A DNA stretch of 64,000 nucleotides, taken from NCBI GenBank assembly GCA_024137785.1, contig JAHRHZ010000288.1, forward strand, positions 735,468-799,467, in the 5' to 3' direction. Made by a program: the position numbers and the translations under genes. This stretch comes from Ginglymostoma cirratum (Eukaryota). Below are positions 4,993 through 60,330 of the stretch, piece by piece (positions within the stretch are counted from its first letter, which is position 1; each line of letters begins with the position of its first letter). The notes beneath the pieces are model-generated. The model was not told the origin of the DNA and did not search any database. It saw only the letters and a list, made by a program, of their open reading frames with translations.

Positions 4993-5090
4993 TTTTCTGA
5001 AGAAGGGTCCAGACCTGAAACGTCAGCTTTCCTGCTCCTCTGATGCTGCTTGGCCTGTTGTGTACATCCAGCTCTACACCTTGTTATCTC
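4993..5090 (+). mobile_element. Penelope-like element 3' terminal fragment with hammerhead core
   Basis: CTGAAGA-a-gggt-ccag-acct-GAAAC-GTC (4997-5024), followed by the same terminus as 44087-44150. Confidence 0.8.
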
Positions 5091-9841: not shown

Positions 9842-10551
9842 GGGATTGTACCATTTAAATTATATTTACCTCTTGTAATTCTTCTTACAAAAGGTATCAC
9901 TTCAAACTCCTCTGCATCAAATTTCATCAGCGTTGTGTTCCCTCTTTCACGGTGAGGTTTCTTGAGGTTTGTCACTGTACTCCTTACAGCCCACAATACA
10001 TCAATATTTATATTTTTTAAAATATGTTCTTTTCAAACTTATTAAAAATTTGTCTCTTAATCCAATCTTCCCTCCACACTCTCTATTTCACTTTCTGTGC
10101 CTGAATTGACATTGAAATTATTATTTCAACTTCCACTTCCTGGCTGAGAGTCTGTGCAGCTCACCATCAAAGCCTACCTGTGAATAGCTAAGTAAATACA
10201 TAGTAGTTTGCCCATTTCATGACTGAACCTCCATAGCCAACTTCTCTTTCTCTCTCTCTATCCCCATTGGTTGGCATTCCTTTGTTCCCTTAGTACACAA
10301 AATTATCTTGATCTCAGACCCAAATGTACCCAATGACTATCGCAACCATTTAGTATCTATCCTGTCAAGCCCTCTGAAACATTTATACATATCAATGAGA
10401 TCATTTTCTATTCCTCTAAATTCCAAAGAATATAGGCTTTTTTAATTATTTGCTTTACATTATTGGCAAATTTGGATACATTATACTCAATCCCCTCATC
10501 AAAATCATGAATATATATCATAAGCAACTGAGGTCCCAGCTCTGATCCTTG

Positions 10552-10638
10552 ATAACAAGCATGGGGCTGGATGAACACAGCAGGTCAAGCAGCATCATAG
10601 GAGCAGGAAAACTTGACGTTTCGGGCCTAAACCAGGTG
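10552..10638 (-). mobile_element. Tiny Penelope-like terminal fragment with 14-bp TSD
   Basis: Near-identical to 42566-42648; TSD agctctgatccttg at 10538-10551 and 10639-10652. Confidence 0.88.
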
Positions 10639-12429: not shown

Positions 12430-13850
12430 ACCATGAAAAATAGGAAGAGGAGTAGCCATTTGGCCTGTTAGCCTGCTCCATGACCCAATAGGATCATGGC
12501 TGATCCAACACTCCTCATGTCCACTTTCTTGCCCTTTCCCCTCACCCTCAATTGTCCGACTGATCAAGAATATACCTATCTCAGTCACTAATATACACAA
12601 AGATTCCACTCCATCAGCTTCCTGTGGCAAAGACCTCCAGAAACTCATGACCCTTTGAAAGAAGAATTTCCTCCTCATCTCAGTCTTAAACTGGCACCAC
12701 TTACTTCTGAAACTATGCCAAATAAAAATCGACAAAACTGTGAATGTTGTAAATCAGAAACCAAATTAGAAATTGCTGAAAAAGATCAGTTCTGGCAGCA
12801 TCTGTGGAGAGAAATCAGGGTTAATTTTTTGGGTCAAATGACCCTTCCTTGAGGAATTTTTGTTTCTGAAACTGTGCCCGCTGGTCCTAGATGCTCTTGT
12901 AAGGGAAACATCCTCTCAGCATTTACCCTTTCAAATCCCTTAAGAATCCTCTATGTTTCAATAAAATCACCTCTCATTCTTCCAAACTCCAGTGAGTAGA
13001 GTCCCAACCTGTTTAACCATTGCTCAAAAGAGAATCCCTTCATAGGCTCACCCTAGTGAATATTCTCTGAACAGTCTTCAATAAATAATATATTTCTTAA
13101 ATAAGGGAACCAAAGTTGCTGGCAGTACTCCAGGTGTGGTCTCACCATCAGCTTATACAGTTACATTAAGACTTCCCTGCTTTCATACTCCAATACTTGA
13201 AATAAGGGGCAAAGTTCCATGAGGCCACCTACTCGCTGTACCCATGTGCTAGTCTTCTGTGTTTCATGTACAAATACCCCCAAGTCCATTTGTGTTGCAT
13301 TTTTCTGCAGTTCTTCTCCCTTCCAAAATGGACAACTTTACACTTCCCCATATAACACTCCATTTGCCAATTTTTTGCTCACTTAGTTAAATTATCAATA
13401 TCTGTGCTGTAAACTTTGTATCCCACGTAAACTGATTGTTTATCTTGCAAGCTGCCATGGAGTCATAGAGCTATACAGCGCAGAAACAGACCCTTCGATC
13501 CAACTTGTCCACGCTAATCAGATATGGTAAACTGATCTAATCCCATTTGCTTGCATTTGATCCATATCCCTCTAGACTCTTCCTATTCGTGTACCTATCC
13601 AGTTGTCTTTCTACCTATTTTTGTTTCATCTGCAAATTTGGCTACAGTACATTCTCTTCCTTCCTCCAATTCATTAATATATATTGGTAAACAGTTGTGA
13701 CCCCAGCACTGATCCCTGTGGAACCCCATTAGCCATAGATTACCAATCTAAAAAAGAACACCCTCTCCCCACTTGCTGTTCCCTGTCCATTAGCCAATTA
13801 TTGTCCATGTCAATATATTACCTCCAACACCATGAGCTCTTATGACTTAA
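12430..13850 (-). mobile_element. Older CR1 fragment containing nested Penelope-derived half element (12722-12868) and CR1 3' end (13460-13610)
   Basis: ORF 12409-12735 (FKTEMRRKFFFQRVMSFWRSLP); GVPQGSVLG-like gaccccagcactgatccctgtggaacccc at ~13700. Confidence 0.8.
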
Positions 13851-14130: not shown

Positions 14131-14310
14131 GGTTCCCTTATTTAAGAAATATATTATTTATTGAAGACGGTTCAGAGAATGTTCACTAGGATGAGTCTAT
14201 GAAGGGATTCTCTTTTGAGCAATGGTTAAACAGTTTGGGACTCTATTCACTGGAGTTTGGAAGGATGATAGGTGATTTTATTGAAACATAGAGAATTTTT
14301 AAGGGACTTG
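14131..14310 (+). repeat. 180-bp inverted duplicate of 12932-13111 (CR1-derived)
   Basis: Reverse-complement match along its whole length, including shared idiosyncratic deletions. Confidence 0.85.
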
Positions 14311-15142
14311 CAAGAATAGCTTCCAATGTGATCTATCCAATGGAATATTTAACAAACACTGAAAATTGTGACACTGAAGAAATAGAAATCAATGAATATA
14401 GATGTCTCTGGCACTGATGATGAAATATTCACTGTATTGACAATATTAGGGCAAAAAATGGACTTTAACAACTTTCTGTTTCCATCAAGTATGATTTTTA
14501 ATATCTGAGACGTTTCATGGACTAAAATGGTTTTCAAAGGACAATGCTGGCCTAAAATGATCACCTGCAAGAATTAAGGCAAGTTCAAAAAAGTCAATAT
14601 GCAATAAACAAAACAGTTTGAATTGAAAATACTGTTTTATCCAAAGTGATTGAAGCAAATCAACTCAGTCTGGCATTGAAAAACTTGTATTTCCCATATT
14701 AATTTACACTGGTATGAGAAGTTGCACATATTAGAATGGAAAGGGTTGCCTGCCACTATCCAGCTTGGAAAGACAATGGAGCCAGACTTGGCAATACACA
14801 AATAAACCATATTTCTGTTCCTGATGGCAGAGTAGAAGATAGAAAGAAATATGGACTGGGAACAGCAATTACTGACGTCTCTTTCTCCTTATCCCCCTAT
14901 TTCCTCATCACCGTCTTAAAACAGCATCCAGCAATAAAAGCAAATCGAAGAAACAAACATTCAATGAGATGTCAAAGATATCGATATATTTTGCTGTGAT
15001 GGAGGATACAAGTCAGCCATTAAACAAACAGCTGTGCTTTCAGGTTAAAAACTAAACTTCTAGGACTCTAAGGAGTTTTAAACCGTGTAGCCTTTATACT
15101 TTCCATCTTTCCATTTGTTTAAGGGATCTATACTGTGTGTGC

Positions 15143-21129: not shown

Positions 21130-21770
21130 AAGTTGAATGAAACTTTGCTCGATCAGAATGGTTAGGAGGTTCAGGCCGATAAAATAAGCAAAATGTTGTA
21201 CTGCCCAGAACAAGGAATGAACACTTGACCCTGTTAAAGGAACTGTTAACCCTCCTCACTAACGTCTGGATCAGACCCACTGAAATGACAGAAGACCCAG
21301 CAGCATAGGCAATTCTCTCAGAGCAATAGAGTGTGATGTATGCTTCTCACACATAGAGAAACCCTCTACTGGTGAAAGAGTCTGGCAGGCATAGGCTACC
21401 AATCTGAGTTCATTGTGATGTACTTGGAGAAGTACAACTGCCAATGTGGCACCTGTGGCTGCAACCTCCAAGGCAAAGGGAAGTTCTACGTTGGGTATTT
21501 GCAGTGTGGGGGCTTGCACTAGGACTAGTTTTAATTCAGCTATAGCATCTGTGTGCAGTTCAGTCCATTCCTACTGGGTATCGCTTGAAAGGAGGTCAGA
21601 GAGTGGAGCAGTTTTAATGGTGAAACCATTGATGTGGTTCCGACAGTGGTGCATTGAGCCAGAAAGTGACACAACAAGCTCATTTCCCTGGGGAAGAGCA
21701 AACAGGTTATGACCTCGATGAGCTTCTCCTCTACCTCATGTTTCCCCTGTGCTCTCACTGTTCCCAAGTC
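21130..21770 (-). pseudogene. RT connection + gypsy-type RNase H remnant, split by a 129-bp inverted insert
   Basis: ORF 21271-21519 (QAPTLQIP..LPFALEVAA...LVAYACQTLSPVEGFSMCEKH) resumes in ORF 21001-21213 (FWAVQHFAYFIGLN). Confidence 0.85.
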
Positions 21771-21779
21771 TGAGTGCTA

Positions 21780-22390
21780 GGACTTCATGATCTACATCTT
21801 CTTTGGGTTAACTGTCCATCTATCACTACCTCGCACTCTGTGCAACCACAGTCATGTTTGTGACTGGTCATCACACTCTATTGCTCTGAGAAAATTGCCT
21901 ATGCTGCTGGGTCCTCTGTCATTTCAGTGGGTCTGATCCAAATGTTAGTGAGGAGGGTTAACAGTTCCTTTAACACGGTCAAGTGTTCATTCCTTGTCTC
22001 AGTCTGCGGAAGGAAATTGTCCACGTACTGTACCAAGCAGTCCAGTTGGGACTCCAGTTCTAGCCCTTCCACCAACCTCTAATGAAATATTGTTCAGAAT
22101 TGTGAAAACTGTGGAGCTTGCAGATCCCTGTGTATTGCTGGTCCTGAAACATGAAGGTGAATTTATATTGGCAGTGTTGGTTGAAGGGTGTGGACCAAAA
22201 TCCATTACTAATGTCCAGCACTGTGAAATAGTTCACCTGTGGGGTTTGATTTATCAGGCTAGTTGCTGTTGTTGGTGCTGTGATCAGAGTGGTTTTATTT
22301 AGTTCCCAGTAATTGATGGTGAGCCATCAAGAGCTGTCTGTTTTCATAAGTGGCCATTGGTGAGATAACTGTAGATACAACAGGTGTATG
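21780..22390 (-). pseudogene. Reverse transcriptase core remnant
   Basis: LDISNGFWS (22192-22218), QYKFTF, FHNS, CLVQYVDN (YVDN 22016-22027), EHLTVLKELL, VNPKK; frameshifted. Confidence 0.88.
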
Positions 22391-26654: not shown

Positions 26655-27235
26655 TACAAGGTGTAGAGCTGGATGAACTCAGCAGGCCAAGCAGCATCAG
26701 AGGAGCAGGAAGGCTGAAGTTTCGGGCCTCGACCCTTCTTCAGAAATGGGGGAGGGGANNNNNNNNNNNNNNNNNNNNNNNNNNNNNNNNNNNNNNNNNN
26801 NNNNNNNNNNNNNNNNNNNNNNNNNNNNNNNNNNNNNNNNNNNNNNNNNNNNNNNNNNNNNNNNNNNNNNNNNNNNNNNNNNNNNNNNNNNNNNNNNNNN
26901 NNNNNNNNNNNNNNNNNNNNNNNNNNNNNNNNNNNNNNNNNNNNNNNNNNNNNNNNNNNNNNNNNNNNNNNNNNNNNNNNNNNNNNNNNNNNNNNNNNNN
27001 NNNNNNNNNNNNNNNNNNNNNNNNNNNNNNNNNNNNNNNNNNNNNNNNNNNNNNNNNNNNNNNNNNNNNNNNNNNNNNNNNNNNNNNNNNNNNNNNNNNN
27101 NNNNNNNNNNNNNNNNNNNNNNNNNNNNNNNNNNNNNNNNNNNNNNNNNNNNNNNNNNGGCCTGCTGTGTTCATCCAGCTCTACACCTTGTTATCTCAGA
27201 TTCTCCAGCATCTGCAGTTCCTACTATCTCTGAAA
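26655..27235. mobile_element. Penelope-like element with inverted termini spanning the assembly gap
   Basis: Arms acaaggtgtagagctggatgaac / gttcatccagctctacaccttgt; TSD cagcattaggatta (26641-26654) vs cagcattgggatta (27236-27249); minus-strand hammerhead core at ~26712-26747. Confidence 0.85.
26759..27158. other. Assembly gap (400 N)
   Basis: Run of N. Confidence 1.
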
Positions 27236-31747: not shown

Positions 31748-31916
31748 ACAAAAACAAAAGTTGCTGGAAAAGCTCAGCAGCAGCTCTGAGGAAGGATCAC
31801 TGGACCCGAAACATTAACTCTGATTTTTCTTCACTGATGCTGCCAGACCTGCTGAGCTTTTTCAGCAACTTCTGTTTTTGTTCCTGATTTACAGCACCCT
31901 CAGTTCTTTCAGTTTT
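31748..31916. mobile_element. Penelope-derived mini element with partial inverted arm
   Basis: gttgctggaaaagctcagcag / ctgctgagctttttcagcaac; TSD tgttgaacaatg (31736-31747) vs tgttgaacagtg (31917-31928); CTGAGGA...GAAAC core. Confidence 0.8.
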
Positions 31917-42390: not shown

Positions 42391-42625
42391 TAGCAGTCTC
42401 AGATTTCTCCCACAATTTCAGTGTGCTTGGGATATAAGTACAAATATATTAACTTTTGAATTAGGAGCAGATGTGGGCCATTCAGCCCCTTGAACCTGCT
42501 CCACCATTCAACAAGATCATAGCTGTGTTGGAGATAAAAGGTACTGCAGATGCTGGAGAATCCGAGATAACAAGCATGGGGCTGGATGAACACAGCAGGT
42601 CAAGCAGCGTCATAGGAGCAGGAAA

Positions 42626-42661
42626 ACTTGACGTTTCGGGCCTAAACCCTTCATCAGAAAT
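42626..42661 (-). ncRNA. Minimal type I hammerhead ribozyme motif
   Basis: AUUU-CUGAUGA-A-GGGU-UUAG-GCCC-GAAAC-GUC-AAGU. Confidence 0.75.
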
Positions 42662-43059
42662 GGGGGAGGGGAAGAGGGTTCTGAAATAAATAGGGAGAGA
42701 GGGGAAGGTGGATAGAGGATGGATAGAGGAGAGGATACGTGGAGAGGAGGCAGACAAGTCGAAGAGGCGGGGATGGAGCCAGTAAAGGTGAGTGTAGGTA
42801 GGGGGTAGGGAGGAGATAGTTCAGTCCAGGGAGGACGGACAGGTCAAGGGGGCGGGATGATGTTAGTAGATAGTAGATAGGAGATAGGACTGGAATACAC
42901 CTCCTCCCACCCACCCTCCTGCAAAAATGCCATCCCCTATTCCCAATTCCTTCGCCTCCGCCGCATCTGCTCCCAGGATGAGACATTCCAATCCCGCACA
43001 TCTCAAATGTCCTCATTCTTCAAGGACCGCAACATCCCCCCCCACAGTGGTCGAGAACC

Positions 43060-43803
43060 GTGTCTCTCGACCGTGTCTCCCGCATTTCCCGGAACACATC
43101 CCTCACGCCCCGTCCCCGCAACAATAACCAAAAAAGAATCCCCCTCGTCCTCACATGCCACCCCACCAACCTCCAGATCCAACGCATCATCCTCCGACAC
43201 TTCCGCCATCTGCAGTCAGACCCCACCACCAAAGACATATTTCCCTCCCCACCCTTATCTGCCTTCCGGAGGGACCACTCCCTCCGCGACCCCCTTGTCC
43301 GCTCCACACTCCCCTCCAGCCCCACCACACCCGGCACTTTTCCTTGTAACCGCAGGAAGTGCTACACCTGCCCCCACACCTCCTCCCTCACCCCAATCCC
43401 AGGCCCCAAGAAGACTTTCCACATCAGGCAGAGGTTCACCTGCACATCTGCCAATGTGGTATACTGCATCCGCTGTACCCGTTGTGGCTTCCTCTACATC
43501 AGGGAAACCAAGCAGAGGCTTGGGGACCACTTTGCAGAACACCTGCGCTCAGTTCGCAACAAACAACTGCACCTCCCAGTCGCGAACCATTTCAACTCCC
43601 CCTCCCATTCCTCAGATCACATGTCCATCCTTGGCCTCCTGCAATGCCACAGTGATGCCACCCGAAGGCTGCAGGAACAGAAAATCATATTCAGCCTGGG
43701 ATCCCTGCAGCCCAATGGCATCAATGTGGATTTCACAAGCTTCAAAATCTCCCCTTCCCCAACCGCGTCCCAAAACCAGCCCAGCTCATCTCCACCTCCC
43801 TAA
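43060..43803 (+). pseudogene. Penelope-like ORF C-terminus: Cys-rich linker + GIY-YIG endonuclease
   Basis: PCNRRKCYTC; FTCTSANVVYCIRCTRCGFLYIRETKQRLGDHFAEH; VANHFN; LQPNGIN. YIG has become YIR and the catalytic Arg position is His. Confidence 0.92.
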
Positions 43804-44054
43804 CCGGTTTTTCCTCTCACCTCAAGCCCCACCCCCATCTCCGATCTACTAACATCATCCCGCCCCCTTGACCTGTCCGTCCTCCCTGGACTGAACTATC
43901 TCCTCCCTACCCCCCTACCTACACTCACCTTTACTGGCTCCATCCCCGCCTCTTCGACTTGTCTGCCTCCTGTCCACCTATCCTCTCCTCTATCCATCCT
44001 CTATCCACCTCCCCCTCTCTCCCTATTTATTTCAGAACCCTCTTCCCCTCCCCC

Positions 44055-44090
44055 ATTTCTGATGAAGGGTTTCGGCCCGAAACGTCAAGT
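44055..44090 (+). ncRNA. Minimal type I hammerhead ribozyme motif
   Basis: AUUU-CUGAUGA-A-GGGU-UUCG-GCCC-GAAAC-GUC-AAGU; predicted cleavage after C44086. Confidence 0.78.
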
Positions 44091-44715
44091 TTTCCTGCTC
44101 CTATGATGCTGCTTGACCTGCTGTGTTCATCCAGCCCCATGCTTGTTATCATAGCTGTGTTGTTTGTTTCGTCAAATTTGCATTCTCATCTATTCCAATA
44201 ACTTTCACCCACTTGTGTAACAGGTATCTGTATACCTCTGCCTTAAAAGTATTCAAGGACTTCACTTCCATCACCTTTTCAGGAAGAAAATTCCAAAGAC
44301 GTCCAATCCTCTGAAAGGAAAAGATATTCACCTAATCTCTGTTTTAAATGGGCAATTATTGATTTTTAAACAGCGACCCCCCCCCCCCAGTTTTATATTC
44401 TTTCAGAAAGGAAACATCCACTACACTTTCAAGATAGCTCAGGATCTTATATGTTTTAATCAAGTCACTGCGTCCCTCTCTAAACTCCAGCAAATATAAG
44501 CCTAATCTGTCTAACCTTTTCTCATAAGACACCTTCTCATACTAGGCATTAGTCTGCTAAACCTTCTTGGAACTGTCTCCAATGCATTTATAGCAAGGTA
44601 AAGCAGGAGTGGGTCATATGTCACGAGCTCCCCCATCCAATTTGACCATCATTGGATCTTCACCACAAAACAAACTAACCAACTTTTGCTCCATGTTCAT
44701 TGAAGACATTCAAAA

Positions 44716-45252
44716 GATCTTATGCCCTTCATGATTTTATAAACCTCTAAAAGATCACCCCTCCAGAAAAAAAAAGTCCCAGCCTATCTAGCCTCTCCTT
44801 ATAACCTAAACCCTCCATTCCCAGCAACATCCTTGTAAATATTTTCTGCACCCTGTCCAATTTAATAATACCCCTCTTCTAGCAGGTAAACCAGAACTGT
44901 ACACAGTATTCCAAAAATGGCCTTATCAACACCTTTTCCCTAGAATAGGGGAGTTTAAAACTAGAGGGCATATTTGTCAGGTGAGAGGAGAAAGATTTAA
45001 AAGGGACCTGAAGGGCAACACTTTCATACAGAGAATAATTCGTATGTGGAATGAACTGCCAGAGGAAGCAGTAGATGCAGGTACAGTAACAACATTTAAA
45101 AGACACTTGGACAAGTACATGAATGGGAAAGGTTTCGAAGGATATGGGCCAAATGCAGGCAAATAGTCTAGTTTGGGAAATTTGGTTGGCATGGATGAGT
45201 TGAACTGAAGGGTCTGTTTCCATAATGTATGACTCTATAACTCTATAACTCT
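44716..45252 (+). mobile_element. CR1 insertion with inverted 5' part
   Basis: 44716-~44930 is minus (RPFLEYCVQFW...IMKG); ~44931-45252 is plus (FPR...RIIRMWNELP, (ctataact)n tail). Confidence 0.85.
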
Positions 45253-45808
45253 AAGTAGGCTGTTCAACCCATCAAGTCTTCTTCACTATTCAATGGGATC
45301 ATGGCTAATCTGATAATCCTCAACACCACTTTTCTGCCTTATTCTCATAACTCTTGATTCCCTTAAAGAAATCTGTGTATGTCAGCCTTGACTATACATA
45401 ATGGCCTAGACTGGAGAACCCTCTCTGGTCAAGATTTTCACAGGTACTTTCACAGTTGATGGATCAAAATCCTGGAACACCCTTCTAAATGTAATGTGGT
45501 TGTCCCTACACCCGAGGCTTGTAACGGTTCAAGAAGGCAGCTCACAACCACTTCCTACATGGCAGTTAGGGGTGGGCAATAATTGTTGGCCTAGCCAATG
45601 CTGCCCACATCTCATGAACAAATTAAAATGATTCACGCGGAATGGAAGTAGGTCATCCATGAACCCAAGGGACCACCTAAGAAACAGAAGGGTTAGAAGC
45701 AATGACTTTCACAAAGGAGAATTCGTGATTATACGGATGTTCTAGTAACCCAGAGGATTCTTGTAATATTCTGGGGAACCTGAGTTCACATCCCACCAAA
45801 ACCTTGTG

Positions 45809-45854
45809 ACAATTTAAATTCAGTTTCTAACAATTTAAATTCAGTTTCTAACAA
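45809..45854. repeat. Perfect 21-bp tandem duplication
   Basis: acaatttaaattcagtttcta x2 + acaa. Confidence 0.9.
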
Positions 45855-47399
45855 AGCCAAAATATCGACAAATGAGTAGCTACTGCGAGCAAAAGTGATA
45901 TTGAAGTTGTTTTCAAGAACGTATGTCTGCCATTTCACTCCAATCCAATGTAGATGACACTCCTCAGCCCTCTGTAAAACCCAAATCCTAAGAACTAACT
46001 TTTAATAAAAAAAAACTCATTTCAGCTTTGCTAGATCCAAGTTGTAACATTATTTTGATCAAACTTGGAAATTAGGAAGATGAAAATTAAAGTATAGTCA
46101 TTGGCAGCTCTGACATGTTGCGCACACTGTGACACTGTGTAGTGATTGTAAAGAGACTGAAAGGCTAGTGATTTCACTTCATTTAAGCTGTGGCTGCTTC
46201 ACAGCAATACAAAACAGTATTCCATTAACAACCCAATAACGAATATACACTGGGTATGGAGAACCACAGACATTTGTGCGGCTGCGAATGATAAGGTTTC
46301 ATCAGGAATCATTAAGTGCAATCTTCATAATGTTCACCTTTATTATGTCATGAAATGATTATCACTTTCAGTAAGCCAGTACACCAGGGCTCTCATTTCC
46401 TTTATACGGTACAGTGAGTCCCATGCACAGAAAGGAACAAACCATTTCACACAAGACTCATAAATGCCTACAGAAAAGAAAGAGAGGATATGCCATGCTG
46501 AAGACATACAGAGTTTCAAATGAATATATGCCACTATGTTGTAATCATCACTTCATTACTGCTGAGAGATTTCTAACAAGGTCTCATGGGAGAGAGGTCA
46601 TAGGAAGGGCATGTCAGGGGGATCAGAGGCAAAGCAGTCTGGTGGGCACTGGTAGCCACCCCCTTGAACACATTCCCACACCTAAATGGCCCCAGATTAA
46701 GGCAAATGGAGCCCCTACCCCTTGCCCAGCCAGAAATCCAGTATCTCTTCTGTCAAGAAAGTAGCTTATTCATCCAGTTGTGAGTGGAGACCCTTTGGTG
46801 CCTTGTCAATTGTTTAAGGGTCTTAATTGGTGTTGGGTCATTGATGGTCATTGATAAACTTTCTCACAAAACAATTCATTGCTAAGGTGGTGAGAAGGGA
46901 ATGAATATATCTGAGGCCAACTCGCCCAATTATTATCATACTCCATAACACTGGATCTTTAGTCTTAAAACATAACCAGCATACTATATTACCATGCCAA
47001 AGCCTGTCTGAAGTGTGATGCCCTGAATTGGATACAACACATGTTAATGGTCATCTATGAAGATTCAGTCCAAGCTCTGACATATAAATAAACAAACAAA
47101 GGATCCTGCTATAAATTAACATGCAATGAACTATGGTGAGAAATCCTAATGTGTGGAAACATTGGGTGAGGACAGAAGTTGAACTGGGATGAATAGAATC
47201 ACTTTTAAAGAAACCTGCTGATACTCAGTCTAAACAGGAGAGTGGGAAGACTAATCCATGGGCTCAAAGGTGTTAATGAGTACTGTGTTCATGATAAACA
47301 ATTCATACCTGGACATTTAAAGTGGCTGCATTTTATCACAAATTTTAAAGACAGGCTCATCCCATGCTGGTGGGAACAGGTTGGAAAACATGAGACTTG

Positions 47400-48060
47400 G
47401 ATACAGTAAGAACTGCAGATGCTGAAATGAGTCAATAAATGTGGAGCTGGAAAAGCACAGCAGGTCAGACAACAACTGAGGAGCAGGAAAGTTAATGTTT
47501 CAGGCTGAAACCCTTTGTCAGGAGTCTGCACCAACACTCTGAAGAGCATCCCAACCTATCCCTGCAACCTCACATTTACCATGGCTAGCACACTTAGCCT
47601 GCACATCCCTGGACCCTATGGCATAATTTAGCAAGGCCAATATACATAAGCTGCACATTTCTGGACTGTGGGAGGAACCCGGAGCACCTAGAATCACGCA
47701 CAGATACAGGGAGAACCTGCAAACTCCGTACAGTCACTCAGGGCTGGAACTGAACCCAAGTCCCCGGCACTATGATAATTTTCTGGAGATGTGAGTTCAA
47801 ATCCCAGCATGATAAATGACAACATATGAATTTAGTAAAAGAGAAAGATCTGATTTTCAAAAGAGTCTTGATCTAACAGTGACCATGTAACCACTGCTGA
47901 TTGTCCTTAATGTTATTTTATGAAGGGAAATTTGCCATTCTTACCTGATCTCACTGAAATGTGACTCCAGACGCACAACAATGTGGTTGTCTTTTAACTT
48001 TTAACCATAAATGCTTTCCTAACCACTGATGTCCACATTCCATGAACAAATTAAGAAAAA
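47400..48060. mobile_element. Cluster: Penelope terminus (47400-47525, -), V-SINE (47545-47772, -), tRNA-SINE (47780-48060, +)
   Basis: aactgcagatgctg...gagcaggaaagttaatgtttcagg; ggactgtgggaggaacccggagcac; gagttcaaatcccagc. Confidence 0.75.
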
Positions 48061-48169
48061 AAAACAGATGTTAAAAAGAAATGAATAGAACCATCTAATT
48101 GGGCATTGAAAAATGGATTTGGTTTCCAAGTGATTGGAAGACAGTGTGCCATCTTGGGGAGACCAATGA

Positions 48170-48666
48170 ATTGAATTGAGTCATTTATTATCATGCGTAT
48201 TCAATGTAAAGTACAGTGAAAATGTGTACCATTGGCATGCATAGGTGCCATTCTCTTTTACTTAAAATAAAAACTAAGAAAGATGACTTAAAGAGAGTCC
48301 AACTTTTCCTTCTCTGCAGATACAGAGAGCCCTTCTCTGGGCTACACCAGCCTGTGCTATGCCGTCGCTCGAGTCCCAATCTGAACTGCACCAGCCCACT
48401 CCACTGTGAGAGTCCTGCTCCTGGCTTCACAAGCTGACCAGCTTTGTAGCCGCACTGCCTCTGAAGATGCCACTGCTACTCCAGAACCCATCGCAGCCAC
48501 CTTCCTCCTGAAGAGCTCTCTTTATCAGGTAAATTTGAGTGAAAGCTAAATAAAACTGAGAAAAGAAGACAGGGTAAAAGGAAAAAGAAAAAGAAAAAGT
48601 GGATGAAGAGGACAAGCCTGGGCACAGGAGTTCGGACGCTGCTTAGTCTGCCGTCGCCATCTTGCA
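48170..48666 (-). mobile_element. Non-autonomous retro-like element with YY1-type start and Rex1/Babar-like 3' end
   Basis: Minus strand begins caagatggcgac and ends ttttcactgtac...gataataaatgactcaattcaattc. Confidence 0.6.
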
Positions 48667-50429
48667 TCAGTTGCTTCCTTTAAATGTTATTTTATTTTCT
48701 TGAGTTTCTGTCCTAATGTGAGCAAGATTAAGAGCTTCAACTCCGTGTCTTTTGCTAGTAATGTTCAATGATAGGAGTATGGGGAAAGGTAGAAAGGGTC
48801 ATAAAATGACCCGCCGGGAAGACTTGGCAGCCCTACTCAATCCCGCAAGTGTGAACATAAAAGAGTGCCCATATATAAGGGTAATTTATCGAAGTTAGCA
48901 ATTGCCACAGAAGGGCTATTGTGTGCAGTGGTAGTGTCCCTGTCTCTGGACTAGAAACCAGGTCCAGAGATGTATCTTAACATGTCTGAACACCGTGATG
49001 AAAAATATCTACAATCGTCACGAAGGTGGATGAATTCAGTAAGATTTATCTCTGAGACACCTTATGGCCTTAATCATTTTTACAATTCATGATCAATGTT
49101 TTCATGTGGACTGGAAGTCCTGGGGGTTTGGACTGGCGCTTCTGACATAGATGTGGAGAGGGAGGGAATGAGTTATTGTTTCAGGGTGGAATCCTTACAT
49201 TGGACACTATGCTGGTCTCCAATCTTGATGTTCTGCATTCTTGCCATTCAACAATATTTTTCTTCCCTTCTTATCTGGGTCTATGGAATTTTCTTTTCCT
49301 GGCCAGTCTTTCAAACTTCCTCTTCTACCTGCCTCAGCATCCCATCCCTTTTAGCTATTCTAATGATCAATGTGTGTCAGAAGTTTGTTGTCCAATTGAT
49401 ATTACTTCTGCTATTTAACCATCTTCTCCTTTTCACTTTGCAATTCATTTTATTGCTTCACTTGCAAGATACTGGATGGTTATTCCTCTCTCTTTTTGGT
49501 TTCTCTCTTTTTAAATGCTGTTTATCTATCATGGTCTCAAGCTGTGAAGAAAAGCCCGTAACTTTAGGCCTACGCCCAGCCCGTAAATAATGTTTGATCT
49601 ATTGTGTGTCTTCTGCATTTTTTCAAGGAAAGACATTCTTTTTTCTAATCAATTTTCTAACTTTAATTTGCACATGAGCTAATTTTCTTTTGCGGTCTGC
49701 ATGATTCAGTGTCAACTAATAATAAAAGCTGTAAGCTTAACTTGCAAAGTGGGAACTTATGGCTGGATGTAGAAATACACACAAGGCTTCGTTATGTGGC
49801 TTTGACACGCATGACATGCTACTGGTTATCAATTTTATGAAGCAATTAATTAGTTTCAAATCATTATCTCCAAAGTCCAATACTTTCACTGTGGATTGTA
49901 GCTGCTGAGTGAAATGATTTTTCTTTGATTAGTCCTAGGCTATGGTCTTGTAGCTTTGGAACGTAATGACCAAGAACAGATTTTTGCATGTAATGAGCAA
50001 AAAAACTTCTTTTACAGGAACCATTGATCTGAATTAAAAGCAAGATCTAAAGCTGTTGTTTCATTACAGAATCCAGGTGAAAAGTCCAAAAAGTGACATT
50101 ATGAGGACTTGTTGTACAGACTACACTTGCAATTTAATGGAAGGATGAAGAAGTGATTTAATGAATGTGTTCAATTAATAAAACAGATAATCATCTTCTT
50201 CAATATGATGAATAGAGCTGAGAGAGAAGTTGCTAAAAAAAAACTGTTCCTTTGATGAGGAGAGCTCAAGGGCAGAATTTTTATTCCAAGTTGGTGACAA
50301 GAAAGGAGGAGTGTGGCATCTAATTTCACACCAACAGCTGGCATGCCAACTTGCCAATGCCATCCCACCCCTGGGCCATTTTCCTGGAGGCAGGATTAGA
50401 GATGAAAGGGTTACTAACAGTTATCACTA

Positions 50430-50745
50430 AATAAAAATCAAAAGAACTGCGGATGCTATAAATCCAAAACAAAAATACAAATTGCTGGAGATAGTAAGAA
50501 CTGCTGATGCTGGAGTCAGAGATAACACAGTGTGGAGTTGGAGGAGCACAGCAGGCCAGGCAGCATGAGAGGAACAGGAAAGTTGACGTTTCGGGTCGGG
50601 ACCCTTCTTCAGAAAAAGAAGGGTCCCGACTGGAAACGTCAACTTTCATGCTCCTCTAAAAATTGCTGGAAAAGCTCAGCAGGCCTGGCAGCATCTGTGG
50701 AGAGAAATCAGAGTTAACATTTCAGGTGACCCATCCTCAGAACTG
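50430..50745. mobile_element. Penelope-derived arm with a nested Penelope fold-back fragment (50490-50659)
   Basis: TSD aaattgctgga at 50479-50489 and 50660-50670; internal inverted gggtcccgac...gaaacgtcaac. Confidence 0.85.
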
Positions 50746-50907
50746 GAGGAGCACTGTTTAAAAAGAGAAGGAGAGAAAACATAGAGAATTGCTAGTTAGT
50801 CGTGGGGAAAATGTTAGAGTCCATTATAAAAGACATGAAAACAAACCATTTGGAAACCATTAAGGAGATTGGATAAACCAGCATGGGTTTATAAATGACA
50901 ATTTATA

Positions 50908-52100
50908 GGGGGAGATATTATCACTAGACTCTTAAACCAGAAACTCTGCCAAATTTCTGGGGACCTGGGTTTGAATCCCACCACGATAGTTTGAACACAA
51001 AAAAAAATGTATAACTAAGAATCAGCTAATGACTGCAAAGCCATCACTGACTGTTGGGAAAAACCCATCTGACACACTGATGCCTGTCCAGACATTCTCA
51101 CCTGGTTTGGCCTACATGTGATTCCAGATCTATAGCAGCGTAGTTGACTCTCAACTGCCCTCTGAAGTGTCTTACCAAGCTACTCAATTGTTTCAATTGC
51201 TACAACGTCTCAACAAAGAAATAAAACTGGATGGATCACCTGGTATTGACCTAGGCACCGGAAAAGACAACAGCAGAAACAGCCGTCGACCCTGCAAAGT
51301 CATCCTTATTAACAGCTGGTGGTTTGTGCCAAAATGGAATAGCTGTCCCACAGATCAGTCAAGCAAAAGCTTGACATATTCATACAATTGGAATCATACC
51401 CCAGAAACAAAAAACACTATCGCCAGACATATCCTGTCCCACAGGCAGCACAGTGGTATACAGTTGGGAGGAAGTTTTCCTGGGAGACTTCAACATTGAC
51501 TCTGACCCCATGAAATCTCATGGCTCCAGGTTAAACATTGACAAGGAAACTTCCTGCAGATAATCATGTACTGTTTTCCCTCGGCTGATGAATAAGTATT
51601 CTTCCATGTTGAACAACATTTGGAGAAAGCATTGAGAAAAGAAAGGACGCAAAATGTACTCTGGGTAGGGGAATTGAATGTCCACCACCACCAATTGGGC
51701 CAATAGCAGCACTATTGATTGAGATGTTTGGACCCTAAAGGACATATCTGATAAACTAGGTCTGCAACATTTGGTGGTGAGGGAACTAACAAAGGGGAAA
51801 AACATACTTGACCTCATCTTTATCAATCTGCCAACTGCAGATGCATCTGTCCATGACAGTGTCAGTAAGAGTGACCATCGCACAATCCTTGAAGTCGCAC
51901 CTACACATTGACAATGCCCTCCATCGCGTTGTATGGCACTACCAATGTGCTAAATAGGACAAAACTTCAAACAGATCTAGCAACTCAACTATTGGCAACC
52001 ATGAGGCACTATGGGCCATCAACAGCAGCAGAATTGTACTCTAACACAATCTACCCGCCTATCCCCCTCTCAACCATTTCCATCAGGCCGGGGATCAACC
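50908..52100 (+). mobile_element. 5' part of an L2/CR1-group LINE: tRNA-derived head followed by decayed APE endonuclease
   Basis: B-box GGTTTGAATCC at ~50968; later GELNVHH (GDFN-like), NILDLIFINL and SDHRTIL motifs at ~51670-51890. Confidence 0.8.
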
Positions 52101-52124
52101 CGGTGTCGCTCCTCAAATTTGCTT

Positions 52125-53810
52125 TCTGAATCACTGCAACTCTGGAGGAGGCTGAGGATAGACATGTCAGAGGGGAGGCCAGGGGGCACGTTGAAACAGG
52201 TGGTGACTAGAAGGTTAGGTTGGCTGTTACAGATGCTGTGCGAAACGGTTACCTAGTCTATGCTTGGTCTCACCAACATAGAGAAGACCACATCGGGAGC
52301 ACTGGATGCATTGGACTAGGTTGGAGGAGATACAGGTGAAGGTCTGTCTCACTTGGGAGGATTGTTTAGGGCCCTGGATGGAGGTGCGGGAGGTGGTGTA
52401 TGGGCAAGTGTTGCATTTTTCATGGCTACAGGGTTATGGGGGTGGGGGTTGGAATGGTTGTTGGGGATTGTGGTGCAAACTAAGGAGCAGTGAAGAAATG
52501 GTCCTTGAGGAAGGCAGAGAGCAATGGGGAGTGGAAGATGTTCTGGGTGGTGGGGTCTAATTGGAGTTGGTGGAACTGTTTAAGGATGATACTTTGGATG
52601 CCAAGGCTGGTGAGGTGGAAAGTGACGACAAGGGGGATCCTGTCTTTATGGTGTTTGGAGGGGAGAGCTGTGGAGCAGGGAATGGAGGAGGTGCGGTGGA
52701 GGGCTGTCTGGATGACACAGCAGGGAAAAAAACATTGTTTGACAAAGGAGGACATCCAGGATGCTTGGGAGTGGAACATCTCCTCATCAAAGCAGATGCG
52801 ACGGAGACAGAGGAATTGGGAAAACAGGATGGAGTTTTTCAGGATATAGGGCATGAGGAGGTGTAGTCTAGATAACAATGGGAGTCTGTGGGTTTGTAGT
52901 AAATGTTGGCCTGTAAACTGTTGCCAGAAATGGAAACAGAGAGGTTAAGAAAGGGGAGGGAGATGTCTGAGATAGACCAAGTGAATTTGATGGTAGGGTG
53001 GAAGTTGTTAGTGAAGTCGATGAACTGCTCCACTTCAGCTTGGGTGCAGGATGCAGCACCAATGCAGTTATTGATGTAATGGTGGAAGAGTTAGGAAACA
53101 GTACCAATGTACATACTGGAGACGGACTGTTTGAAATAACCTACAAAGAGGCAGGCATAGCTGGGGCCCATGGCAACCCCCTGGATTTGGAGAAAGTGGG
53201 AGGAATTGAAGAAAAAGTTATTGAGGGTGAGGACTAGTTCAGTGAGGTGGAGGATTGTAATTGTGAGAGGGAACTAGAATGGGTCTGTTGGAGAGGAAAT
53301 AACTGAGGGCCTGTAGGCCGTCTTTGTGGGGTATGGACGTGTATAGGGATTGCACGTTCATAGTAAAGATGAAGCACTGGGGGCCAAGGAACTGGAAGTT
53401 TTCAAAGAGGTGGAGGGCTTGGTTTGTGTCCCACATGTAGGTGGGGAGTGCCTGGAGTAATGGGGAGAGAATGGAGTCGAGGTAGGAAGAGGTGAGTTTG
53501 ATGGGGCAGGGGCACGTGGAGATGTTGGGTTGGCTTGGGTGGTTGTGCTTGTGGATCTTGGAGAGCAGGTAGAACCGGGCAGTGCAGGGCTGGGGGACTA
53601 TAAGGCTGGCGGCAGTGGAGGGAAGGCCACTAGAAGCGATGAGGTCATGGACAGTGTGAGAGACGGCGGTTTGATGGGCCATGGTGGGGTCATGGTCAAG
53701 GGGGTGGTAGGATGTGGTATCAGAGAGTTGGCGTTTAGCTTCTGTGACATAGGGGTCCATCCTCCAGGCTACCAACACCCCTCCTTTGTCAGCGGGTTTG
53801 ACAGACAGTG
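52125..53810 (-). mobile_element. Decayed Penelope-like element with RT and GIY-YIG
   Basis: KPADKGG at ~53780-53800; ORF 53239-53778 (ARFYLLSKIHK, TMNVQSLYTSIP); FHPTIKFT, YYKPTDSH, SQFLCLRRIC. Confidence 0.92.
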
Positions 53811-54815
53811 ACTATTAGGTATCACAAAGGTCAGTGTTTGGGCAGTAACTATTCATAATATATATAAATGACTTGGATGAGGGAACCAATACAACATTTC
53901 AAAGTTTGCTGACAACACAAAAAAGGTGGGATTGTGAGTTGTGTTGAGGATGCAAGGAAAATTCTAGGTGACTTAAAAAATTGACCGTCAAACTCATTGC
54001 AGATACAGCACAATGTGGCTAATTGTGAAGTTATAGACAGAAAGGAAGACTATGACTTCAATGTTGACATATTGGGAAGCACAGATGTGCTTTTGGATCT
54101 GAGTGTTCTTGTACACCAGCCAATGAAGGTAGACAGGCAGGTGCAGCAAGCAATCGGGAAGGCAAATGGTATGTTGGACTTAACTCCAAGACGATTAGAG
54201 TTCAGCTGTAGGGATGCCTTACTACAGTTGTACAGGGCATTGGTGAGACCACACGTGGAGTATTGCATGCAGTTTTGCTCTCCCTACCTAAGAAAAGGTC
54301 TACTGGCCGTAGAGGGAGTGCAGCAGCTGTTCACTAAGCTGATATCAGGGACAGCAAGACAGTCATATGAGGAGAGATTGGTTCGACTGGGTCTGTATTC
54401 ACAGGAGTACGGAATAATGAAAGGGGATCTGATTGAAATGTATAGAATTCTAACAGGGCTGGACAGATTAGATGCAAGGAGGGTGTTTACCCTGGTTGGG
54501 AGGCTAGAATGAGGGAACATAGTCTCAGCATAAGATGTAAACCATTTAGGACTGAAATGAGGAAAGCTTTCTTCACTCAAAGGCTATTGAACTGGTGTAA
54601 TTTTGTACTACAGAGGTCTGCAGAGGTCAAGTTACTGAATAAATTCAAGAAAGAGATAAATAGTATGTTTTTAAAAATTAAAAGCATGAATGGGGAATGC
54701 AGAGAAATCAGGAATATGGCATTGAGATAGAGAATCAGCCTTGATTATGCTGGATGGCTGAACATGCTAAAGGAACCGACTGGTCAACTCCTACTCCTGA
54801 TTTCAGTGTTCCTAT
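53810..54815 (+). mobile_element. CR1 LINE 3' fragment
   Basis: KFADNTK; ORF 53997-54512 (LYRALVRPHVEYC); FFTQR..WCN. Confidence 0.9.
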
Positions 54816-55024
54816 GAGTGCCTCTTGTGAAACATCAGGCTGAACTCAAGACTAAATTAACACTACTGCTATTCTCACACAGTATTGGTAGCAAGCACAG
54901 AACCAGATGCAGAATTGGCGAAGCCATAAATGCATACTAGTTAGATCCTCCTAGGAATGGTCCTCTTATCTTGATGGACAGAGCTTATCCTGTAATGTCA
55001 GTTACCCTTTTCAAGTACATTTTT

Positions 55025-55300
55025 TTATAAGGTTATGAGTGTCGCTGACTGGGCCAGTATTTGTTGCTCATCCATAAGTGCCCTTGTGAAGGTGTTGCTG
55101 AGTTGTCTTCTTGAGATGTTGCAGTCCATTTTTGGTAAGTTGACCCATGATGCTGTTAGGGAGGCAGTTCCAGGATTTTGACCCAGTGACACCAGAAGAA
55201 TGGCAATATATTTCCAAGTCAGGATGGTGAGTGGCTTGGAGGGGAACCCTGCAGGTGGCAGTGTTTCCATGTACCTGCTGCCCCTTTCCTTCAACATGGT
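55025..55300 (-). mobile_element. L2/CR1-group LINE 3' end
   Basis: Reverse complement of the 63270-63590 family (FPSKPLTILTWKYIA). Confidence 0.8.
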
Positions 55301-58300
55301 CTGATGCAATAGCAAGAGAAATTGCCGACTTTTAACTTGCAGTTAAATTGATGGAAATCAAGATTGGGTGATTGTTCTGACTTGCAAATGGCCCATAATT
55401 CCAATTATACATCTTACACTAAGTGAAAAATCTATTCCCATTGAATTCAGATTTTCGACATCTGTACGTTCTGTGAGGATAGAAGAGCAGGGAAGTAAGC
55501 AGCTGAGTGATAATTGCAGACTGGCTCCCAGAATGCAGGTAGCACTAGCAAAGGTACAGTCCATCAATAGTCACCCTGAAGCAATTGTCTATCATAATAA
55601 ACATTTGGCCATTTAAGAATCATCCACTGGAGGCAGATTTTGGCCAGTTTGGATAGGAGTGACATGTTCTCTTTCCTGAAGGACATTGGCTGATTAGCAT
55701 AGTTTTCCCAAGAAAGCACGAACTTTTATGATTTATTTTCCTTTGTTGCCAGTTCATAAATCATCAATATTATTGAATTCAGTCCAATGCACTACTAATA
55801 CGTAATTTTACCTTCATTCAACATAGCGAGGACTTATAAAACACAAATAATGCATTGGATATGAGAAATGGTGATATCAATAAATTAAAGTGAAGGGAGT
55901 GTGTGAAGAAACAAGGAATTGGAGTCAAAAACCAAGGATTTTCCATCAAGGATGGCAGGCATTTTCTTAGATAACAATGCAGCCTTGAGATTGTTCATAT
56001 TTTGCAATACCTCAGCATTTTATCAATTTGGCAAAGAATATTGAGGCTGGCTATAAAAGTGGGGATTATCTACAGATTCATAGGCGCACAGAAGGAGATC
56101 GTTTGGCTCATAATTCCTGGGTTAGCTCTTTGAGAACTATCCAAATGAAGCCCTTGCCTCTAATCTTTTCTCCTCTTCCTGTATTTGTTTTTTTGTTCTC
56201 CCTAATTATCTAATTTATCTATTTCTCTTTTGAATGGCACATTTGATTCTGCTTCTCCAGGATGGTGCATTCCGGGTCACAACTTGCTGTGTAAAAAACA
56301 AAACTTCTTTGCGTTATCCCTGTTTCACAATGTAGATCAATGAGTGTAGGGATAATGATTTATTGGAACTTGCTGTGAGTCATGATACATAGTTAAAAAC
56401 AAGATCTTTTTTCCAGGCCTAATAGATAGATATTAAAAAATGTTAAATGGGTCTTTAATAGGCTGGTGTAACTGCATCATAAATCATCGAAGTGGACAGG
56501 CAAAAGGATCATTAGGTTTGATCTTTACAAAGATCCAGTCTCAATTTACCAGTGAAAAATATTAGTTATAATTATATTTTATATTCCTGTGCTGGAAGGG
56601 AAAAGGTGAGAGCAACATAATTGGTTGTTTACGAACACAGAAATGCATAGGAATAAACTGTTGGTTCAAAAATATTAGGTTTGAGCTCCATAGAATTAAT
56701 AGACAGCTTTGAAATGGCCTTATTTCGGCCCACATGGTCAGACTCAATGGGCAGAATGGCAGTGTTAAAGCTAGAACACTAATTCTGCTATCGTGGGTTT
56801 TAAAATTCCCTGGAGTTTCTCCCATTTCCTATTATAAGATAAATAGATAGCCAACAAAATATCCAGGGGAATTGCAATGACAGAAATGTTAGGGCAAGAT
56901 CAATGGATTGAATGGGCTCCAGTATCAATGTTGCTATTCAACATGAATAAATTTTCCACATATGCTATCTGCAATTTTAATGAGATTTGTAATGGGAGTT
57001 AAAGGCAATCACTTTGGGAATTTCAGAACAGAACATATCAACAGGTGGCTGACATTCAGCCTCTCTATCTTATCTATCATTCAGGTAGATCTGGGTGATC
57101 CAGAGGCCTCAACTCCATTTACTCATCTTGATACCCCTACCTGACAAAATGATCTGCAAATATTCATAGAAACATATGGATAGGAGCAGGAGTAGACCAT
57201 GTAACCTCTCAAGCTTGCTCAATAAGATATTAAATAAGATCATAGCTGATCTGATTGTGGCCTCAACTCTAGAGTCCTGTGAACTCCCAGTAACGTCTAT
57301 CTCTTTTATTAGTCAACCATCTCAGCCATGGATCCAAGAAATGGATCTTCGATGGCCTTCTGGAATATTGGAATCCCTTTGATATCCAATCGAATCCGTT
57401 AGTCATTTTAAATGTCTCAATTAGATGTTAAGGCAGTCTTCTAAACTCAGAAAAATACAAACCAATTTCATGCAACCTGTCATCACAACTTTAGCCTTGA
57501 ATGCCTGGTAGCATTATGGGAAATCTGTACTGCTGGCCCCATTGAAGACTAACAGATCTTTCCTGATGTTCAGTGATCAAAACTGAACATAGAACCCAAA
57601 TAGAGTTGATCAATGGACTGTAGAACTAGATAACATTGTCATTTGTATTTCAGACCTCTTTGAGATAAAGGTCATTCATAAAAGCTTTTGTTTACTCTTT
57701 GAACCTGAGAGCTAATTTTCAATGATTTGAATACGTGCTCATTCATTTCATATGCTTGTCTGTATCTTTGCATCTTTCACCATTAAGTAGCAATGTTATA
57801 TGGTTACAAAGTAATTATAGCACAGATAGAGGCCATTCAGCCAATAGGTCTATGACATATTCATACTCAACCCACAAACTCCTTCCATATCTTTTCATCA
57901 AACCAAATTGACATGTTCTTCTATTCCTTTTTCTCTGAAGTTCTTATTTAAGTTGTCCTTAAATAAATCTGCAGTTTACCTCAACTTCGTTTGGAAGTGA
58001 GTTTCACATTCTCATTATTCTCTCAATATGCACATTTCTGCTGAAATCCCAAATGGATTTTTTATCGTATTGTTTGCAAGCACTGCCGACATATTTGCTG
58101 CCAGCAATCCTTCTTGTTGGTTTCAGTCAAATCTAATGATAACAAATGCAGAAGGTTACCCATGTGAAGTCTTCAGCAAAAATAAGGCTCAATTTTGATA
58201 AACAGCAATGGTCAATTATGCAGGGTTTCATAGCTAATTACAGTAAGATAAATGATTGTCTTTTGTGAAACATCAGGTATAAATTATAAGTAAGTACACA

Positions 58301-58352
58301 TTACTGCTCCTGAAGCATTCTGACGGAAAATTTGTTCAGAGACTTTATATAT

Positions 58353-58680
58353 ATTCATTCATGGGATGTGGGCATCTCTAGCTAAGTCAGTATTTATTGC
58401 ACATCCCTAATTGCTTAGAGGGTAATTAAGAGTCAACTACATTGTTGTGGGACTGGAGTCACATGAAGGTCAGTTCCCTTTCCTAAACAGTATTAATAAA
58501 CCAAGTGCATTTTTCTCCAACAATTGTTTCATGGTCATCTTTCGAGTCTTAATTCTATATCTTTATTGAATTCAAATTCCACCATTTACTGTGGCAGGAT
58601 TTGAACCCAGAACCCCAGGACATTACTCGGGTCTCTGGGTTAATAGTCTAGCAAAGGTAACACTAGGCCACTGCCTCCCC
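58353..58680 (-). mobile_element. tRNA-derived SINE, full length
   Basis: A-box TGGCCTAGTG, B-box GGTTCAAATCC; tail cccacatcccatgaatgaat. Confidence 0.85.
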
Positions 58681-58789
58681 TCAACCACAATCCGTTAGTG
58701 CCTTTCAGGAATAGTCCTTTTATGCCCTGATGTGTGGAGCTTTTCGCATGATGTCAGTACGGTACTCTGAACCCATTAGCCTAAATGGC

Positions 58790-60330
58790 CTCAATGGAAG
58801 GTACCGATCTGGTGAAGTGAAATTGCGGGAATACCCATATGCCCAACAATGGTGGCCGCATGGAATAAACAGCTATAAGTAATTCTACAAGTAATGGATC
58901 AGATCTAAGCTCTTTAGTGCTGCTATATCAAGTTGTAAAAGGTGGTACATAAGGAAACTGCTAACAGGAGGAAACACTTCACAAAAATCTCCATCCTCAA
59001 TGGTGGAAGAGCTCAGCACTTCAGAGCTAGAGACAAGACTGAAACATTTGCAACAGCTTTCAGCCAAAAGTGTATCCTAGATCATTCATTTTGGCCTCCA
59101 TCTGAAGTTGTAAGCGTCATGGATTCCAGACTTCAAACGATTCAATTCATCCCACATGATATCAAAGAACAGCTGCAGCCTTTGGATACTGTAAATGCTA
59201 TTGGGTCTGACAACATTCCTGGAATAACACTGAAGATGTGCACTCCTAAATCAGCTGCATCCCAGCCAAGTTGTTCCAGTACAGGTACAACACTGATATC
59301 TACCCAACAATGTAGAAAATTGCCCAGGTATGTCCTGTCCACAAAAACAGAACAAATCCAACCAGGCCGATTTCTACCCTATCGGTTTATTTTCAATCAT
59401 CAGAAAAGTGACAGAAGGTATCATTGATAGTGCTATTGAGTGGCATTTCCAAAGAAATAACTTGCTCACTGGCGATCAATTTGGGTCTGTCTGTGTCACT
59501 CAACATCTGAACTCTATAGCCTTCGTCCAAAAATGGACAGATGAGCTGAATTCCAGATAGGAGGTGAAAGTGATTCCACTTGATTTCAAGGCAACATTTG
59601 ACTGAGTGTAGCGTCGAAGGGCCCAAGCAAAACTGGAGGCAATTTGAATCAGGGGAAATCTCTGCTGGTTGGAGTTATATTTGACACAGATGTTGATGGT
59701 AGTGATTCTTGGAATTCAATCTTCTGAGTCCATAGATGTGGAGCAGCCCTATAATTATTGTGGCTACAAAACAGACCAGGAATTCAACAATCTACTATCT
59801 CCCAAGTGGCTGACAACAATCTACAAGGCACAAGTCAGGAATGCGATGGATATCCTTCACTTGCCTGGATGGGTACAACTCCACCAACACTCAAGTAGCT
59901 TGACACCATCCAAGAAAAATCAGACTGCTTGATTGGCACCACATCCACCATCTTCAATCATCACAACCTCCACCACCAATGCACGGAGGCAGCAGTATGT
60001 ACCATCTTCAAATGCACTGCAGTTACTCAACTAGCCTCCTTCGATAGCTCCATTCAAATTCATGACCTCTGCCATCAAGAAAGGTAAGGTCAGCAGATGC
60101 ATAGAGATACCGCTATTTGCAAGTTACCCTCCAAGCTATACCCCATCCTGAACTGGAACCATATCACTATTTCTTAACTGCCACTGGCTTAAAATTCCCT
60201 TCCTAACAGCACTGAAGAACTTCAGTTATTGAAGAAGGCAATTCACCACCACATTCTCCTGGGAAATTAGGGGTAGACAATGAATACTGACTTAGCTGGT
60301 GGTGTCCACATCATGTGGATGACAAAAAAA
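58790..60330 (+). mobile_element. L2/CR1-group LINE, decayed RT and 3' end
   Basis: AIGSDNIP..LK, FYPIGLFSII, LLTGDQFG, LDFKATFD, TIYKAQVR. Confidence 0.85.

Follow-up and report, generated by a model that had tools for sequence, protein, structure and literature searches.

A surplus of 5' junctions at the scissile bond of a Penelope-like minimal hammerhead in the genome of Ginglymostoma cirratum

The 5' junctions of one Penelope-like element (PLE) family in Ginglymostoma cirratum show a family-wide surplus at the bond that the hammerhead of the family is predicted to cut; this is new here and suggests a modest, testable lead. The family was studied from a window of 64,000 nt (the whole stretch of DNA that was analysed), in which the motif at 44055-44090 is, judged by its sequence, a real and intact copy of an already published kind of minimal hammerhead. 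Its parts are as follows.

44055..44090, + strand: minimal type I hammerhead (sequence and pair counts)
44055-58/44087-90, + strand: stem I, 4 bp including one G-U
44059-65, + strand: core CUGAUGA
44067-78, + strand: stem II (GGGU UUCG GCCC)
44079-82, + strand: GAAA
44082-85, + strand: palindrome ACGU
44084-86, + strand: GUC, with the predicted cut after C44086

In order, the motif consists of AUUU, CUGAUGA, A, GGGU, UUCG, GCCC, GAAA, C, GUC and AAGU. An earlier, sequence-only reading had described the core, stem II, the ACGU palindrome and the 4-bp stem I correctly, one stem I pair being G-U, and had overlooked the unpaired A44066 between A9 and G10.1. Its assignment to Penelope-type minimal hammerheads in a young element holds as well. 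A strict hammerhead descriptor had four matches in the window and none in 200 mononucleotide shuffles. The Rfam scan of the window gave no match to a hammerhead model, and its single match was unrelated (E 0.51). The UUCG loop is rare, with 1 of 100 among the matches listed in the exact-pattern genome search, and about 89% of the RNA reads covering 44073 carry A at this position.

Metazoan PLE hammerheads are marked by an extra 9/10.1 nucleotide, a G10.1-C11.1 pair and a palindromic 15.2-16.2, according to the text consulted of Cervera and De la Pena (2014, PMC4209133). The motif shares with these min-HHR the core, the extra nucleotide, G10.1-C11.1, the palindrome without loop 3 and the position in the PLE terminal repeat, and also the short helix I, the mostly solo copies and some opposite-strand pairs; it differs from them in a helix II of 4 bp. 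In fetched DNA, the extra nucleotide is A in 130 of 131 distinct copies, with GC in 114 and GT in 14. The exact hammerhead pattern has 82,468 matches in the genome of 4.36 Gb, and the reversed-pattern control has none; the same paper gives about 4,000 copies for coelacanth and about 9,000 for Xenopus, obtained with a different descriptor and on different assemblies. The literature search on Penelope-like hammerheads in elasmobranchs found no papers.

The motif is carried by an insertion with the following features.

42531..42881, - strand: inverted 5'-truncated copy of the terminal repeat (arm alignment)
42531-42565, - strand: optional 35-nt tail, left arm only (sister-locus ends)
42890..44150, + strand: 5'-truncated Penelope-like body (ORFs, identity to sister loci)
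42519..42530, + strand: left copy of the 12-bp target site duplication ATAGCTGTGTTG
44151..44162, + strand: right copy of the 12-bp target site duplication
44024..44030, + strand: TATA-like TATTTAT, a putative promoter, some 31 nt upstream of the start that short copies have in common

The 12-bp duplication flanks the whole 42531-44150 unit, which is therefore one insertion, and the window copy is a broken, dead fold-back Penelope-like insertion, a stub of 1.6 kb. The body encodes the last part of the RT thumb, then the linker CNRRKCYTC and a GIY-YIG region, followed by a 3' terminal repeat without the tail, and is 95-97% identical to several sister loci. The GIY-YIG region is frameshifted, and its YIG reads YIR; Pfam gave no match on the two frames of this truncated and frameshifted copy. 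The hammerhead lies about 250 nt past the stop of the GIY-YIG frame, inside the repeated arm. Arms of 305 bp had been proposed, and their existence and rough length stand, but the arms align over 316-317 nt with 97% identity, including a 308-nt core with six substitutions and one indel. The 3' ends of 60 anchored sister loci are at the tail end in 28, at about 44150 in 22 and elsewhere in 10. An older relative of the body, 73-74% identical to 42923-43284, is present at 52492-52839 (-).

Sister locus L035 encodes RT motifs QTKGVAMG and YIDD, the CNRRKCYTC linker and a GIY-YIG domain (Pfam E 3.1e-5, above the cut-off; RVT_1 E 0.002, below it). RT and a GIY-YIG at the C-terminus follow each other in one ORF, as in EN+ PLEs. 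A full-length parent with a start codon was not found among six fetched stretches. The inverted terminal repeat, the 35-nt tail on the left arm only and the 12-bp duplication also agree with the layout of EN+ PLEs, which have an optional tail and an inverted repeat (Arkhipova et al. 2013, PMC3846280; Craig et al. 2021, PMC8557442). In the parts of these papers available, such insertions are alike in the inverted 5'-truncated copy at the 5' end, the tail of 30-40 bp on one end and the short duplication, and differ from the window copy, which has no direct upstream repeat and no full ORF. A CX2-5CxxC linker between RT and EN defines Neptune and Nematis (PMC8557442); CNRRKCYTC is of this form, and the CX4CX2C linker of the element fits these clades.

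It is scarcely credible that the structure is a non-autonomous retrozyme, in which tandem hammerhead repeats make circular RNA. The type I hammerhead is related to PLE terminal repeats, which would favour it, but retrozymes are defined by at least two consecutive tandem units (bioRxiv 10.64898/2026.07.22.740005, in the text seen), and the motifs here are inverted and flank PLE coding sequence. No tandem units are present, and the inverted layout refutes a non-LTR retrozyme at the 42531-44150 locus.

Other hammerhead motifs were recognized in the window.

42626..42661, - strand: second hammerhead, loop UUAG, in the inverted arm (core at 42657(-))
4993..5028, + strand: sister-subfamily motif in a short stub, with C11.1>T at a CpG (core at 4997(+))
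26712..26747, - strand: sister-subfamily motif with a broken palindrome, GAAACUUC (core at 26743(-))
50581..50616, - strand: sister-subfamily motif in a short fold-back stub (core at 50612(-))

The loops of these copies are as the sequence-only reading had them, but the palindrome is broken at 26743, and stem I has only 2 bp in the three CUGAAGA sisters (4997, 26743 and 50612). Positions 10550-10633 (-) hold an 84-nt stub that is 99% identical to the right arm and starts inside stem II, so that it is without the CUGAUGA core; AGGATCAGAGCT flanks it on either side. Older families in which helix II varies are represented by decayed hammerhead-like ends at 31786(+), 38061(+), 47521(-) and 50740(-), and the fetched relatives of these ends have GUU instead of GUC at the cut. 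LTR-retrotransposon-type RT and RNase H remnants are present at 21210-22326 (Pfam RT_RNaseH_2 E 7.4e-13; RVT_1 E 3.5e-4), overlapped by a 129-nt inverted repeat of 96%. A separate inverted pair at 12928-13111 and 14131-14314 is 184 nt long, 93% complementary and 1,019 nt apart.

Variation of stem II between copies had been put forward as covariation kept by selection, and this was not upheld. A two-sided change was found in none of eight pairs of the six window copies, where 500 of 500 shuffles scored as high; the pairing of stem I is kept in just 66.7% of the cells. Among the 131 distinct copies from fetched DNA, a sample biased by the many loci picked with patterns fixing GGG or CCC, pair 4 of stem II varies on one side (UG 109, UA 18), and no stem II pair changes on both sides; invariant pairs carry little information on covariation. 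Methyl-CpG decay yields near-equal rates of both mirror changes at a CpG. C11.1>T, seen at 4997, keeps a G-U pair and has 10,379 matches genome-wide, and G12>A, the mirror change at the same CpG, destroys the core and has 10,775. These counts are near-equal, and there is therefore no sign of selection keeping the ribozyme in inserted copies, in which core loss proceeds at the neutral CpG rate. Selection on the parent elements remains likely because the core is common to older families with a longer helix II (5 bp in 8 of 11 copies).

The motif at 44055-44090 is probably idle at its locus and intact because the copy is young; in the RNA of the parent element its cleavage would be slow, in dimeric form or assisted by protein. 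In folding of the whole unit, the core is predicted to be paired in the arm duplex (P 0.96 on the + strand and 0.95 on the - strand). In both directions the antisense arm is transcribed before the motif, and the ribozyme is therefore predicted to be buried in this duplex; each RNA has a single sense copy, and therefore no dimer in cis. In the monomer, stem I is predicted not to form (P at most 0.02). PLE hammerheads cleave as dimers according to Lunse/Weinberg/Breaker (RNA Biol 14:1499), as cited in the available text of PMC6765202; they are alike in the short palindromic stem III requiring a partner, and unlike them, the 44055-44090 locus has no head-to-tail partner. The earlier proposal that the arms could form long dsRNA is supported. 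The accompanying claim of a usable ribozyme in either read-through direction is contradicted by the predicted burial and the missing cis dimer, and that of read-through by the flank, which is nearly silent in one polyA run: over 44534-60000 the mean depth at 98% identity does not exceed 7.4 in either direction, and no reads fall in 15 of the 30 bins examined.

An active and locally useful ribozyme, cutting read-through host RNA on either strand, is accordingly most improbable. Both motifs are intact, stem II is predicted to be retained (P about 0.8) in a short RNA that begins 3-4 nt ahead of the right-hand core, and the family RNA is abundant enough for conceivable dimers in trans; the antisense arm, however, precedes the motif both ways and is predicted to pair with it, and intactness is expected at 95-97% identity to sisters. 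No host exon was recognized by Pfam in 143 of the 147 selected non-repeat frames of at least 62 aa, a scan that omitted four overlapping frames near 26.7-27.2 kb and that short exons could escape; its best-scoring frames were RT/RNase H remnants only. Locus-specific activity is thus unlikely because the core is predicted to be buried, there is no cis dimer, the flank is nearly empty and no host exon was recognized.

In polyA run X22, 42,650 of 12,895,792 reads fit the family (42890-44500) at 90% identity or more, split about evenly between the two orientations; run X23 gave only 26 and 0 reads. About 0.33% of the reads of the X22 library thus match a single Penelope-like family in both orientations. 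No pile-up of RNA ends was present in X22 at 90% or more or at 98% identity, for which fragmented polyA libraries are a weak test.

When the tail is present, stem II is predicted to be lost (P 0.01), and at 42531-42661 (-) a helix is predicted between the last bases of the tail and the hammerhead core (-11.7 kcal/mol). This helix was found post hoc; 1.5% of 2,000 tail shuffles were as strong (p about 0.015), and it is not mirrored in the tail of the sister subfamily. As a weak lead from modelling, such pairing would keep the leader uncut beside the start of reverse transcription. An upstream 'anti-hammerhead' switch at 44031-44045 was discarded because stem II is disrupted equally well or better by shuffled versions of the 40 nt concerned (83% and 97% of 150 at or below the real value).

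The 5' junctions were counted as three mismatching bases followed by a 20-nt anchor and tallied by the first element base. Many short copies start 2-8 nt before the core. In 9,993 copies, non-element bases stand immediately before 44056, about 31 nt after TATTTAT; copies starting before 44056 hold the whole ribozyme, and their templates were therefore uncut. Copies that start just before the core often have extra T bases at the joint, which untemplated A on the cDNA end would give. Further downstream, 102 junctions were counted at 44079, 157 at 44080, 57 at 44085, 112 at 44086, 414 at 44087 (of 65,039 anchors), 400 at 44088 and 129 at 44089, numbers in which fold-back pairs and tandem duplicates are counted twice and which are not independent events. 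The count at 44087 exceeds those of six control positions (57-157), and is 4.8-fold above the control CpA at 44129 (85 of 63,906). After correction for the weights of the filter and of chance matches, 44087 and 44088 are about 2.5-8 times the other five near-cut positions. Reverse transcriptase stalling at stem II was rejected as a source of the short copies, with few junctions at the base of the stem (the 102 at 44079), and general CpA fragility is not supported by the one CpA control.

The surplus at 44087 may reflect cleavage by the ribozyme in vivo, with several hundred insertions copied from RNA cut at GUC/A, a reading to which we give somewhat better than even chances. The competing explanation, a serious one that we hold to be rather less probable, is that the hammerhead never cuts copied RNA in vivo; the excess at 44087-44088 would come from joint preferences for the AAG purine patch in a pyrimidine-rich strand at A-rich targets, and the motif would be kept for another role, e.g., protein binding or a promoter. 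At 44087, plain joints to unrelated DNA make up 17 of 30 loci; 3 others are indel or tandem cases, 1 is masked, and 9 are fold-backs, with 0-1 nt of microhomology in 6 of 6 measured. By script, 30 loci at 44088 comprise 11 plain joints, 12 fold-backs, 5 indels and 2 masked; by eye, 5 of these 11 plain joints are indel or sister copies that carry the hammerhead, so that 6 remain, and the fold-back joints have a 2-nt AG microhomology in 6 of 7 measured. The 400 junctions at 44088, many with AG microhomology, favour joint preferences, as does the start of the A-run, which is inflated too (157 at 44080 against 57 at 44085). The predominance of plain joints at 44087 speaks against them, as do its 2.6-fold excess over the A-run control and 4.8-fold excess over the CpA control and the placing of the rise exactly between 44086 (112) and 44087 (414). 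The target duplications at 44087 are divided: 2 of 5 overlap the element by 2-3 nt, which suits joint preferences, and 3 of 5 (L076, L080 and L090) have no overlap. L080 is a clean case, with the element from 44087 to about 44149 between 14-bp duplications.

A hand tally of 92 scored among the 100 matches listed (1,363 in total) gave, for the main subfamily, 12 starts at 83, 5 at 84, 5 at 85, 5 at 86, 20 at 87, 15 at 88, 5 at 89, 13 at 90 and 12 at 91+; eight of the listed rows were excluded as internal deletions, duplications or length variants. For the sister subfamily, with 98 scored among the 100 matches listed (1,700 in total), there is no peak at the cut (83: 8, 84: 7, 85: 17, 86: 6, 87: 11, 88: 15, 89: 12, 90: 14, 91+: 8; bins other than 87 range from 6 to 17). 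The flat tally, which counts in favour of joint preferences, fits weaker cutting with a 2-bp stem I and equally fits an AAG joint preference. Taken as a fossil record of cleavage, the junctions would amount to about one cut per 24 uncut-leader copies, strongest in the subfamily with 4-bp stem I, and we lean slightly towards this reading; the ratio of about 24:1 (9,993 against 414) is rough, as it rests on different anchors. The literature searched held no report of a genomic junction peak, and one may be in print.

In the proposed course of events, which takes cleavage in vivo as real, the 5' end of parent transcripts would lie some 3-4 nt ahead of the core and about 31 nt downstream of the TATA-like box, and such a start therefore places the hammerhead at the very front of the leader. 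Reverse transcription would have an internal start on the RNA, either at 44150 or 35 nt beyond it, and run back to the RNA 5' end, a step proposed because of the available text of PMC11167929 and the two 3' ends seen among sister loci. At the time of copying, most leaders would be uncut (9,993 copies with a start before the core) and a small fraction cut (414 with a start at the scissile bond). In the window copy, target duplication, inverted arm and one-sided tail show a single insertion event; decay of the core in copies follows the neutral CpG rate, and RNA running through the 42531-44150 locus is predicted to fold back and hide the ribozyme.

The function of hammerheads in these elements is called unclear in the text seen of PMC8557442. 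A close comparison is with Poseidon of Anolis carolinensis (Frangieh et al. 2024, PMC11167929), for which the available text describes two starts of reverse transcription, uncut RNA as the main template and protein-assisted hammerhead cleavage in vitro. Poseidon is alike in the hammerhead at the border of terminal repeat and ORF, the two 3' ends separated by the tail, the uncut main template and RNA-seq reads that do not end at the cut; it differs from the family here, which has the Neptune/Nematis CX4CX2C linker. That no RNA-seq reads end at the site, and that cleavage was not needed in vitro, is also in keeping with joint preferences as the source of the surplus. The same text does not say how many genomic copies begin at the cut, a number determined here.

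The single motif is ordinary, and the interest may lie in its family. Young copies number in the tens of thousands, and their 5' ends, taken base by base, suggest that the RNA has a fixed start directly ahead of the ribozyme and that starts at the scissile bond are in slight, position-exact excess. If the surplus does come from cleavage, it would be in vivo evidence, although indirect, that slow hammerheads cut a minority of retrotransposition templates, and it would provide a sequence-only measure of how frequently the ribozyme of each family cuts in the germ line.
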